This document shows, piece after piece, positions 7,215-61,586 of a stretch of 64,000 nt of DNA (within the stretch, counting starts at the first letter, position 1; the number at the start of each line of letters is the position of its first letter). Where the stretch lies: assembly GCA_964016885.1 (NCBI GenBank), contig OZ024744.1, positions 99,634,001 through 99,698,000 on the forward strand. Direction: 5' to 3'. Below the pieces are notes generated by a model that saw nothing but the letters and a program-made list of their open reading frames with translations, was not told the origin of the DNA and did no database searches. The position numbers and the translations under genes are program-made. Origin of the DNA: Eledone cirrhosa (taxonomy: Eukaryota).

Positions 7215-8257
7215 TCATCATCATCATCATCATCATTTTACGTCCGCTTTTCCCTGCTTGCAAGGGTGGGACGGGTCTTATTCAGCACAGCATCTCTCCA
7301 CTCGTCACGGTCCCTCGTCATCTCCACCGTGAGCTTCAATGATCTGAGGTCTGTTCTCACCACCTCCGCCCATGTTTTTCGTGGTCTACCTCTACCACGT
7401 CTTCCTTCAACTGGCAATTCCTGGCACTTCTTCACCCATCGGTCATCCTCCATGCGCATCACATGTCCATACCACCTCAGTCTCCCCTCCCGTACACTAC
7501 ATTCTATCCCTCTCAGACACAGTTTCTCTCTCAACACATTTATGCTGGGTCGTTCACGCACATTTACACTGCACATCCAACGGAGCATGCTTGCCTCATT
7601 TCTCGCCAGCCGTCGCATATCCTCTGCAGTTGCTGCCCATGTCTCACTACCATGCAGCATCACGCTCCTCACACAGGCATCATACAACCGGCCTTTCGTA
7701 CGCAGGGAGAAACCCTTCTTCGTCAACAGAGGAAGCAGCTCCCTAAACTTCTTCCAACCCGTCCTTATTCTAGATACTATGGCCTCGGAACACCCTCCTC
7801 CCATGCTAATCTGATCTCCTAGGTACCGGAAGCTATCCACCACTTCTATAGCGCCCTCTTGCATTTGAAAAATGTGTCTATCAGTGCGACTTCTACTGTC
7901 TAATTTCCCTGTACATCTACTGCATACATATTTCTCCCTACCTGTTAGTTTGCCTGCTATCCCGCTACATCTCTTGTGTACCCAGGATCTGCATTGTGTG
8001 CATTTTATAGAATTTATGCCAGTTCCTTTTCTGCATATCGAACATGGCCATTTCCCTGACGGAATCAGGGTTTTGTCCTCTTTTCTACTCATCAACACTT
8101 TTGTCTTAGCTAGATTCACTCTCAGTCCTCTTGCTTCCAACTGCTGTTTCCATAGCCAGAATTTATTCTCTAGCTCCTCTACTGATTCTGCTATAAGAAC
8201 CAGATCGTCAGCATAGAGAAGTTCCCATGGACAGCCAGTCTTAAACTCCTCTGTTAT
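7215..8257 (-). mobile_element. Young 5'-truncated RTE LINE (open RT C-terminal ORF, (GAT)n tail)
   Basis: Open frame WELLYADDLVL...FRYLG...MLHGSETW...RLRWYGHV...GRGRPRKTW, with a PHD-like C4HC3 insert. Ends in a (TGA)n tail. A near-identical 3' piece lies at 20845-21065 (+). Confidence 0.92.
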
Positions 8258-8578
8258 ATATATATGTAGAAGTTATATTTAATTTGTTGGGATACAACAA
8301 CAAATATTTTTATAACTGATATAAAGCACTCAACAAATTTTTGGAGTAAAAATACAATATATTAACAAATGGAAACTATATTTATAAAACCATATTTATT
8401 TCATTATACATATTTCAAGGACACCAAAGCGAATTATGGGATTTAAACCTTTCCGACACTAATTTGCGTAATAGACCAATAATAAAATTAGTAACCCCAC
8501 TATCCGGGAGCTTCCAACCGACATGGTTGCATTCTTTAAGGGTATGTCAATATTTGTTTATAAAACTGATCTATATTA

Positions 8579-8641
8579 TATTTTATCTGATGAAAGCGCA
8601 CCATAATTTGCTTTGGTCCTTGAAATATATATAATGAAATA
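8579..8641 (+). ncRNA. Type-I hammerhead ribozyme motif
   Basis: TATTTTAT-CTGATGA-stem II (aag..acca/tggt..ctt)-GAAA-TATATA-TA-ATGAAATA. 8-bp stem I, palindromic stem III. Confidence 0.75.
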
Positions 8642-8850
8642 AATATGGTTTTAGAAATATAGTTTCCATTTGTTAATATATTGTATATATATATAAAATA
8701 AGGGTTGACGGACCCAGCATATTTATCAATACCAGTACCAGTTGTATCTCAGCGCACTCAATGGGCAATGTAAGATACATTACCAGAGTATACACATAGT
8801 TATTTGCCTCAACACAACACAACACACGTAAATCGGGTGCCTACAAGGTT

Positions 8851-8938
8851 CCCGGACTCGAGTTTCTGCAGCAGTAAGGTGCACTGCACCATCTGTCTGC
8901 AATAATGCACAATCGGATTATGCTGCTTCATCAGCGGG
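8851..8938 (-). ncRNA. Type-I hammerhead ribozyme motif with extended stem II
   Basis: Minus strand CCCG-CTGATGA-a-GCAGCA...TGCTGC-a-GAAA-CTCGAG-TC-CGGG. GUC cleavage triplet, palindromic ACTCGAGT stem III. Confidence 0.75.
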
Positions 8939-9387
8939 TATCGCCTAATCAATAACCAATCGATCGACATAATCCAAACACCGACCCGCGCCGGTCATGA
9001 CTGTTTGTGACAACCGACACGGTAAAGCGGTTAACTGGCAACCGATAGGACTCTATCTCTCAACTAGCCACTGATTTATAAATTTTACATGGGGACGGGA
9101 AGCTAAAAAGAATCAATCTATTAGTTCCTGTCAGAAGATCTCAGCCAACGTGTCTCACACACAAATTATCAAGGGGTGAAAAGATGGCTATTATATATAT
9201 ATATATATATATATATATAAAAGAAAATTTTCGCTCTACATGGCTGAATACAATAAATGTAACCTGAGTTTTTTGAATATTAATAATATCAGCCAGTCTG
9301 CGAATATGCAAATTAGTCCGATCAGTCACTATATTTTAGAAAATAGCATATATTTTCACTAGCTCTGACATTTGGCAGGTGAACAGT

Positions 9388-60106: not shown

Positions 60107-60504
60107 TATATATATATATATATATATATATATATATATATATATGTATATACAAATTGTTAAAACGATCAAATTTTAGTTTAGAACATTTATTAGCTGA
60201 CAATTGTTTCTTCCAGAGGGAAGTCTGGAATCATCGGATCATAAGGAATGTTGACCACTGATTCTCCATTTCTTATGTGATATTATACTCTGCTCTGTAA
60301 GAGAATCGAGTACCCAAACAGCCTACTGCATACTGCATATTTATATATATATATATATATATATATATAATAAATGTAATCTCAGTTTTTCGAATATTAA
60401 TAACAACATTCGATTCGTTTGCAATTATGCAAACAAGCCTCATTTTTAAAGCCATGTCAGTAGAATGAACTCTTCATTCTTGCTCTTGTGTTGGCATGTG
60501 AACA

Positions 60505-60554
60505 GAACTGCAAACACTAATGTTTCTGGGTATCACCCTTCATCAGTACAGTTC
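60505..60554 (-). ncRNA. Hammerhead ribozyme motif, paralog of 9388-9437
   Basis: Minus strand GAACTGTA-CTGATGA-aGGGTgatACCCa-GAAA-CATTAGTG-TT-TGCAGTTC. GUU triplet instead of GUC. Confidence 0.78.
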
Positions 60555-61361
60555 ACTGTTCACCTGCCAACTGTCAGAGCTAGTGAAAATATATGCTATT
60601 TTCAAAAATATACAATGACTGATCGGCCTGATTTGCATATTAGCAGATCCACTGATCAGCCAGATTTGCATATCAGCAGACTGGCCAGTCAGTTTCCTGT
60701 ATACGAACGATAAATGGTCGACTTTGCTAAATTCAAATAAAAAAAGAAAATTTTCGCTCTACATGGCTGAATACAATAAATGTAATCTGAGTTTTTCGAA
60801 TATTAATAATTGTTTCTACTTTAGGCACAAGGCCAGCAATTACCCAGTGCATTACTGGTACTTTATTTTATCGACCCCGTAAGGATGAAAGGCAAAGTCA
60901 ACCTCAGCGGGATTTGAACTCAGATCGTAAAGGAACGTAACTATGCTGGAAAGCATGGCGTCCGACCCTCTACTGATACTTCCAATCCACCGCCCTTTTC
61001 GAATATTAATACTAACATTCGATTCGTTTGCAATTATGCAAACAAGCCTCATATATATATATATATATATATATACTTGGAACTCTTTTAACCATCTTTT
61101 GATCTTATATTATATATATATATATATAAATGAAGTAATTCCGTCGGAAAAGTCCAGGAAAAAAGAGTGCTCTATGTAGGTAACAGAGTTTAATAGTTAT
61201 GTAATAAACAACATAAAGCAATTATTCCATTTACCAGTGGTTTCTTAAAAGCAAAAAATTTTGCTTTCAATCATCAGAATGAAAAAATCCTGGTCTATTT
61301 ATTGATATTGGATTCTAATAGAATTCTTTAGAATCCAATATCAATAAATAGACCAGGATTT

Positions 61362-61421
61362 TTTCATTCTGATGATTGAAAGCAAAATTTTTTGCTTTTA
61401 AGAAACCACTGGTAAATGAAA
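61362..61421 (+). ncRNA. Hammerhead ribozyme motif (mirror copy on - strand about 61225-61284)
   Basis: TTTCATT-CTGATGA-TTGAAAGCAAA/TTTGCTTTTAA-GAAA-CCAcTGG-TA-AATGAAA. 7-bp stem I, 11-bp stem II. Confidence 0.82.
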
Positions 61422-61586
61422 TAATTGCCTTATGTTGTTTATTACATAACTATTAAGCTCTGTTACCTATATATATATATATATATAAAATTTTATAGTT
61501 TTGTTCATATAATGAAACAGTTCTAGTCCTGTAGAAGCCATTTCTATATTAAATATATATATATATATATATTCAATTTTATATTT

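Follow-up and report, generated by a model that had tools for sequence, protein, structure and literature searches.

The stretch of the Eledone cirrhosa genome analyzed here (assembly GCA_964016885.1, contig OZ024744.1, forward-strand positions 99,634,001 to 99,698,000; 64,000 nucleotides (nt), hereafter the window and numbered from its first letter) harbors many type-I hammerhead ribozyme motifs, which a first-pass annotation had described as a diverse population of mini-elements inserted in (TA)n microsatellites. We conclude that these motifs are very probably the 3' ends of Penelope-like elements (PLEs), mostly of the Hydra type, together with units that lack an open reading frame (ORF) and are likely copied by the same enzymes, with the insertions 5'-truncated, often arranged back-to-back, and lodged in TA repeats. 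Hydra PLEs with hammerheads in (TA)n are known; what the present analysis adds is their scale, the ORF-less passengers, and a shared hairpin signal.

We searched both strands of the window with a type-I hammerhead descriptor (stem I ≥4, stem II ≥3, stem III ≥2), which returned 14 matches compared with a mean of 0.07 to 0.09 in dinucleotide shuffles (maximum of 1 in 100 shuffles); a second version of the descriptor returned 15 versus 0.05. The shuffle comparison suggested along with the first-pass annotation thus comes out strongly in its favor. The window contains 16 motifs in total, distributed over 11 insertions and 10 families (A to J, identified by their cores in Table 1; cores 9396 and 60546 both belong to family C), and all 16 have the core of CUGANGA, GAAA, and UH in type-I order with stems I and II. 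The "at least 11" loci originally proposed are all real, 10 of them matched by the first descriptor and the eleventh once wobble is allowed; this last motif, the minus-strand core 29457, escapes the first descriptor because its 4-nt stem III self-pairs by G–U wobble only, and intact relatives exist (locus L216). The original list is complete in this sense but overlooked five inverted partners, the minus-strand motifs at 30267, 38493, 56943, 57978, and 61277, which accompany 30383, 38590, 57055, 59908, and 61369, respectively, and face outward at all five loci. Stem III is self-complementary, as had been proposed, forming a perfect palindrome at six of the 11 loci and, in the remaining five, containing wobble pairs or a mismatch at its center; the computed value for the stem III self-duplex is negative for nine of 10 families and positive for the window copy of family I. 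Predicted single-strand folds give the full three-way junction as the lowest-energy form for 61369 only, with most others retaining stems I and/or II, which agrees with a stem III formed between two copies. Ten of the 11 insertions have TA runs on both sides, in line with the initial description; the insertion at 60370–60812 has TA on one side and an insert resembling a short interspersed element (SINE) on the other.

To place these motifs among their relatives, we examined 317 genomic copies gathered by BLAST, the core being intact in 259. Variants found in at least three copies occur in four of 110 core columns versus 124 of 1001 other columns, such that the core nucleotides are conserved across genomic copies, whereas single variants per column are about equally frequent (0.31 in the core versus 0.37 elsewhere). 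In these alignments, the pattern is the one produced by selection on source elements and subsequent neutral decay of their copies; selection likely maintains the hammerhead in the source elements, and in the stubs it is carried as a passenger. The probability that the motifs arose by chance in AT-rich repetitive DNA is vanishingly small. The 7-nt core alone is barely enriched (34 seen versus 25 to 27 expected), and Rfam, recommended as a check in the first-pass annotation, detects none of the 16 motifs, with no hammerhead family returned for the window at the gathering threshold or at E ≤10; nevertheless, the excess of full-descriptor matches over shuffles, the 80,815 genome matches of one exact sub-pattern versus 188 for a control, and the sparing of the core by shared variants refute this explanation.

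Three families are linked to protein-coding parents of the Hydra type. Copies have a common 3' end and 5' ends that vary from copy to copy. At locus L025, the inverted arm of a family J insertion reaches a GIY-YIG frame after 1.2 kb of untranslated sequence, and the J end is found 0.9 to 1.4 kb downstream of this frame, on the same strand, in 24 of the 30 loci found with it; locus L103 reads as a 613-nt repeat, a 715-residue reverse transcriptase (RT) plus GIY-YIG frame, and the repeat again. The 3' end of family A lies downstream of a second Hydra-type endonuclease frame in 16 of 20 loci, and that of family H within 1.5 kb of a third in eight of 20, some with a variant end; the counts for J, A, and H each include the locus that gave the query. 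The endonuclease pieces of the three families share ≈50% identity, and their layout is a single ORF with RT and C-terminal GIY-YIG domains upstream of the hammerhead. The marks of the Hydra clade, namely a CxCX5C linker, DKT, CxxC before the E, CxH after the N, and no CCHH, can be read in the J and A frames and in part in H, from a broken copy, with each motif present in 93 to 119 of 120 homologues; the RWK motif is RWI in family J. Homologues of these frames match PF01541 and PF00078 (GIY-YIG, E = 0.0019 for A), and the A, H, and J insertions occur in (TA)n with partial tandems, inverted 5'-truncated copies, and a one-sided tail. On these motifs, we provisionally assign families A, H, and J to the Hydra clade, with the likeness to the printed Hydra-1_Obim alignment judged by eye. 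An assignment of the J-linked frame to Neptune was rejected, as its marks match those of the Hydra clade (PMC8557442, section 11). One family H element, at locus L174, seemingly harbors two related hammerheads ≈1.2 kb apart in a TG/TA-rich 3' region.

Family I is preceded by an RT plus CCHH-type GIY-YIG frame, read in four of 12 loci. At locus L258, this frame contains an RT, a degenerate linker, and CxxC..H, with a weak Pfam GIY-YIG match (E = 0.092); by these motifs, the parent of family I is probably Neptune-like. The 100- to 500-nt "mini-elements" of the first-pass annotation are thus mostly truncated 3' ends of longer elements, as indicated by their variable 5' ends and the RT/GIY-YIG frames upstream. 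The label "non-autonomous" suits the four of 10 families that are ORF-less but not the four that end protein-coding PLEs (A, H, J, and I); for families F and G, no parent was found.

The ORF-less families B, C, D, and E consist of head-to-tail units of ≈840, ≈440, 1286, and ≈2025 to 2075 nt, respectively, each with one hammerhead, and mostly occur as one to two units. Upstream of the family D unit lies its own 3' end, and in nine of 12 loci a second, partial unit extends past the cut site; family E has its own 3' end directly upstream in eight of 12 loci, two of which overlap; the B unit starts after a copy of its own 3' end in 10 of 15 loci; and family C wraps onto its own 3' end. No ATG frame exceeds 52 codons in D or 126 in E, and neither matches a Hydra profile; these ORF and profile tests covered D and E, with B and C judged by size and by ORF inspection of the window. 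An ORF upstream of B at loci L052 and L177 was rejected as a parent, as TA runs and other inserts intervene. That all 10 families are short, non-autonomous retrozyme-like elements with a natural length of 100 to 500 nt is therefore highly improbable: although four families are ORF-less, C is of retrozyme size, and another family forms a 310-nt tandem array in L194, the 5' ends vary, the continuation of A, H, I, and J upstream into RT/GIY-YIG frames refutes the proposal for those four, and the units of B, D, and E measure 0.84 to 2.0 kb. These three exceed the size of retrozymes (units of ≈150 to 400 nt in tandem arrays), with C borderline. Retrozyme-like arrays of ≈310-nt units do occur elsewhere in the genome, at L194 (281–3381, 11 units) and upstream in L040, and these units harbor a canonical small hammerhead with a 6-nt palindromic stem III.

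The 3' ends reveal a feature that coding and ORF-less families share. We surveyed 366 motifs in loci chosen around these families, partly overlapping, which fall into 42 clusters, 25 of them with at least two members. In seven families (A, D, E, F, G, H, and J), the 3' ends fall into two groups, a short end 38 to 60 nt and a long end 105 to 200 nt past the predicted cut; the B copies had been chosen by their long end. A bulged hairpin lies 0 to 6 nt beyond the short end in eight families, in the order RCUC, a variable stem, a loop of 3 to 45 nt, the stem partner, a 2-nt bulge, GAGY, and RC. It is found in long copies of J (14/20), H (16/23), E (18/27), D (19/22), F (11/12), B (15/18), and G (5/5), and in 3/16 of A, a low count because the minimum spacing of the descriptor loses many A copies. 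Across nine clusters, three hairpin positions show compensatory pairs, the outer being A–U or G–C and the next two swapping C–G/U–A and A–U/G–C. The motif occurs 43 times in 464 kb versus 2.1 in shuffles; a hammerhead core lies upstream in 15 of these 43, and many others lie in additional stubs flanked by TA. A similar motif is found after the long end, clear in D and imperfect in E and J.

Fold-backs, in which two inverted arms lie back-to-back, combine these ends in a characteristic way. Fifty of 72 could be classified, 43 as short/long, four as long/long, and three as short/short, and all seven window fold-backs are short/long by eye. Seven window insertions being inverted repeats bordered by TA, fold-backs might be taken for DNA transposons with terminal inverted repeats, akin to miniature inverted-repeat transposable elements, in which hammerheads are incidental. 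We regard this as extremely improbable, since the two ends differ in type (short versus long), no two copies have the same inner junction, and copies with one arm or in tandem are frequent; that the arms extend into RT genes refutes the proposal. TA-flanked stubs without a hammerhead also exist.

For the preferred origin of the motifs as PLE ends and ORF-less units mobilized by PLE enzymes, we propose the following mechanism. The GIY-YIG domain would cut (TA)n, and the Hydra protein would bind the tail hairpin, which would act as the docking signal of the reverse transcriptase, such that reverse transcription is initiated internally, at either of two fixed positions on the RNA. Both cut DNA ends would probably be extended, giving one short-end arm and one long-end arm, and early stops would give fold-backs of 100 to 500 nt, the length after which most copies end. 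Repeated insertion into the same TA runs would then build nests, and ORF-less units would need only the hairpin. The hammerhead would cut as a dimer of tandem units. A dimer cannot form within one fold-back transcript, because its two motifs lie on opposite strands; given this, and given that some TA-flanked stubs have no hammerhead, cleavage would play a role in tandem source copies only. Several of these steps have a counterpart in the Poseidon PLE of the anole (PMC11167929), where the purified protein cuts AT-rich DNA on both strands, initiates internally in vitro at two sites bounding the tail, and uses uncut RNA as the main template, with hammerhead cleavage protein-assisted and dispensable for insertion.

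Instead of an uncut tandem transcript, the template might be a circle that arises through hammerhead cleavage and ligation and is read beyond a single turn. Such a template has been proposed in PMC4209133 and, for retrozymes, in PMC7229834; nine of 12 D loci read upstream through the cleavage site into a second unit with seamless junctions, and D copies differ slightly less within a locus (1.95%) than between loci (2.63%). The same DNA would, however, arise from uncut tandem RNA, and the comparison within and between loci fits both templates alike. In addition, the anole PLE needs no cleavage and has uncut RNA as its main substrate (PMC11167929), and three of 12 D copies start 12 to 17 nt after the cut site, as a cut linear template would also produce. 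We consider a circular template less likely than not.

Several observations weigh against the origin of the motifs in Hydra-type PLEs and their passengers. The hairpin is absent from C (0/26) and I (0/5), and one enzyme therefore fails to explain all families; C and I would likely be moved by non-Hydra PLE enzymes, a relic of such a PLE being present in the window at 1583–2760. Neither D nor E has BLAST similarity to J or A elements, and what ties these two families to Hydra enzymes is the hairpin, the pattern of their ends, and their TA flanks; this evidence, like that for B, is circumstantial. The 715- and 760-residue frames were not named by sequence searches of Pfam and PDB. For family F, an upstream walk with a 24-nt pattern gave eight loci, none with a linked frame, and copies of family G share no common upstream sequence, their parent element not being found; a 281-nt upstream query for F was rejected as belonging to another small element. 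Furthermore, the loci studied are the best matches rather than random copies, the columns of the core test are mutually dependent, and 22 of the 72 fold-backs are unclassified, in 14 cases owing to failure of the family J tail marker.

To estimate the abundance of these motifs in the genome (3.0 Gb), we sampled 40 evenly placed 10-kb stretches (400 kb). The sample contains 49 motifs, 11 of which belong to one 310-nt tandem array, versus 0.05 in shuffles, a rate of one per 8 to 10 kb with a wide spread between stretches. Extrapolation of the sample suggests a whole-genome total of ≈3 × 10^5 hammerheads, consistent with the exact sub-pattern described above, for which nine matches are observed in the sample and 10.8 are expected from its genome count. 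Motif density in the window (15 per 64 kb) is about twice that of the sample (38 to 49 per 400 kb). First-look candidates number 1,200 to 3,300 for nine of 10 families and 71 for J with a short query, and 45,000 to 59,000 for the endonuclease, none of these being copy numbers. The first-pass view of many PLE-related families and very abundant minimal type-I hammerheads is upheld on each point. For comparison, 2,000 to 9,000 hammerheads per genome are reported in PMC4209133, over 6,000 for a coral and as many as 120,000 for axolotl in PMC7229834, and 235 in giant squid in PMC6962438. We tentatively propose, with rather less confidence than for the origin of the motifs, that the ≈300,000 hammerheads of this genome (≈1 per 8 to 10 kb, the densest among the reports compared) stem from a radiation of Hydra-clade PLEs and 0.8- to 2-kb ORF-less passengers that share only the hammerhead and the bulged hairpin, and that this hairpin, as an RT docking signal, may fix an internal start a few bases upstream, explain the one-sided tail, and suffice for the mobility of a non-coding RNA.

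The first-pass annotation had suggested that the radiation could be uncatalogued, which does not hold for the class. The Hydra clade has hammerheads and almost always inserts in (TA)n (PMC8557442, Craig et al. 2021), the supplement of that paper includes Hydra-1_Obim of Octopus bimaculoides with a hammerhead, and dispersed and opposite-strand minimal hammerheads from truncated PLEs are described in PMC4209133 (Cervera and de la Pena 2014). As in the C-terminal endonuclease-positive (EN+) Hydra clade of PMC8557442, the elements described here have RT followed by GIY-YIG, the linker, DKT, CxxC, and CxH marks without CCHH, a hammerhead near the 3' end, (TA)n insertion, partial tandems, inverted 5'-truncated copies, and a one-sided tail. 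They differ in comprising at least three coding families and ORF-less passengers versus a small set of families, and in tails of ≈50 to 140 nt versus 30 to 40 nt; the available parts of that paper do not mention a shared tail hairpin. By eye, the same bulged hairpin lies downstream of the hammerhead in a published Hydra consensus of another species (PMC8557442 supplement). The metazoan PLE hammerheads of PMC4209133 are likewise type I with a long stem II and a palindromic stem III, with many families per genome, mostly as single motifs, with opposite-strand pairs 100 to 700 nt apart and predicted dimer cleavage; here, the sub-pattern count alone far exceeds the per-genome numbers given there, and the stem III palindromes are longer (8 to 10 nt).

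Animal retrozymes without long terminal repeats (PMC7229834; bioRxiv 10.64898/2026.07.22.740005) also consist of ORF-less head-to-tail units with one type-I hammerhead and a proposed dependence on PLEs, and family C fits them in size, whereas B, D, and E differ from these ≈300-nt arrays in their 0.84- to 2.0-kb length, their dispersal as one to two units, their inversions, and their one-sided tail. The anole Poseidon PLE (Frangieh et al. 2024, PMC11167929) resembles the present elements in two internal starts bounding the tail, AT-rich cutting of both strands, and a stem-loop at the start. It is one element with an AC-rich stem-loop, in contrast to a different bulged hairpin in eight unrelated families, coding and non-coding, which we infer from genome copies. 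Two octopus repeat papers (PMC8967140 and PMC13282606) mention Penelope-like elements; in PMC13282606, the words "hydra" and "ribozyme" do not occur. A search of titles and abstracts, with most subscription journals and Repbase outside its reach, found none on the tail hairpin, on 0.8- to 2-kb ORF-less Hydra-type passengers, or on such a hammerhead count.

PLE reverse transcriptases are the closest relatives of telomerase, and how they choose their RNA and start site is a standing question; which enzyme moves animal retrozymes is a second question that the hairpin touches. A 20- to 60-nt hairpin that occurs in coding and non-coding families at a fixed distance from copy ends makes both testable in vitro. 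For genome annotation, Rfam misses all 16 motifs, and the stubs occur at one per 8 to 10 kb in microsatellites and in at least one probable host intron.

Table 1. Hammerhead-bearing insertions and a related relic in the window, with family assignment, position, and strand. Family labels follow the cores listed.
Family	Feature	Position	Strand	Details
A	Fold-back stub, Hydra-type coding PLE	8266–8683	+	Inverted arm 8266–8439, forward arm 8440–8683
A	Inverted arm	8266–8439	−	Long end; tail hairpin 8347
A	Forward arm	8440–8683	+	Core 8587; predicted cut after 8633; short end
B	3' part of ORF-less ≈840-nt unit	8700–9190	−	Core 8934; predicted cut after 8855; tail hairpin 8789
C	Short inverted 3' end, then forward part of ORF-less ≈440-nt unit	9220–9569	+	Inverted 3' end ≈9220–9290
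C	Core 9396	within 9220–9569	+	Predicted cut after 9429; without Hydra-type tail hairpin
I	120-nt 3' stub, Neptune-like (CCHH-type) coding PLE	29355–29474	−	Minimal hammerhead; core 29457
E	Fold-back, stub of ORF-less ≈2.02- to 2.08-kb unit	30160–30611	+	Short-end arm core 30267 (−); long-end arm core 30383 (+)
J	Fold-back, 3' end of Hydra-type coding PLE	38308–38687	+	Long-end arm core 38493 (−); tail hairpin 38391
J	Short-end arm	within 38308–38687	+	Core 38590
F	Fold-back	56847–57231	+	Short-end arm core 56943 (−); long-end arm core 57055 (+); tail hairpin 57154
G	Stub	57408–57522	+	Core 57421; short end; relatives have tail hairpin
D	Inverted 5'-truncated arm, then whole unit	57859–60105	+	Inverted arm 57859–58699 (core 57978, short end)
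D	Whole ORF-less 1286-nt unit	58700–60105	+	120-nt direct terminal repeat; core 59908; predicted cut after 59971
D	Unit tail	58700–60105	+	Tail hairpin 60035, long end; second hairpin-like motif after first repeat, ≈58825
C	Second copy, slightly more than one unit	60370–60812	−	Wraps onto own 3' end; core 60546
H	Fold-back, 3' end of third Hydra-type coding PLE	61129–61467	+	Long-end arm core 61277 (−)
H	Short-end arm	within 61129–61467	+	Core 61369
	Broken, 5'-inverted CCHH-type PLE	1583–2760	+	RT piece 1583–1930 (−); GIY-YIG 2070–2460 (+)

Stubs form two nests, 8256–9607 and 56831–61487. Further TA-flanked stubs or fold-backs of other families, without a whole hammerhead, are found at 30629–30847, 57535–57674 (with a tail hairpin), 57684–57841, 61076–61110, and 61488–61552. 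The broken PLE listed last in Table 1 has a hammerhead-like core at 2692 with a stem I of 2 bp only, and 632 first-look candidates. No empty-site allele was found in four contig sets, of unrecorded kind, over 8000–9800; three runs of one sample show an accumulation of loose TA-rich ends at 8352, which fits the short end of family A.

The remainder of the window is rich in other repeats. Two RT frames of long interspersed elements are present, one at 50315–52213 (+) with 632 residues open (RVT_1, E = 7e-15) and one of 343 residues at 7238–8272 (−), with the nest at 8256 starting where this frame is cut off. An 84-nt exon at 29100–29183 (+) has AG/GT borders and matches the spermine/spermidine synthase domain (PF01564, E = 7e-5), and the stubs at 29355 and 30160 probably lie in introns of this gene. 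Tandem arrays occur at 12014–13078 (71 nt × 15), 15200–19145 (85 nt × 46), 41015–41943 (107 nt × 9), and 22705–23035 (83 nt × 4, the unit being SINE-like). Finally, tRNA-like matches at 20296–20366, 25706–25763, 11499–11556, 32805–32862, and 39041–39098 are likely SINE heads.

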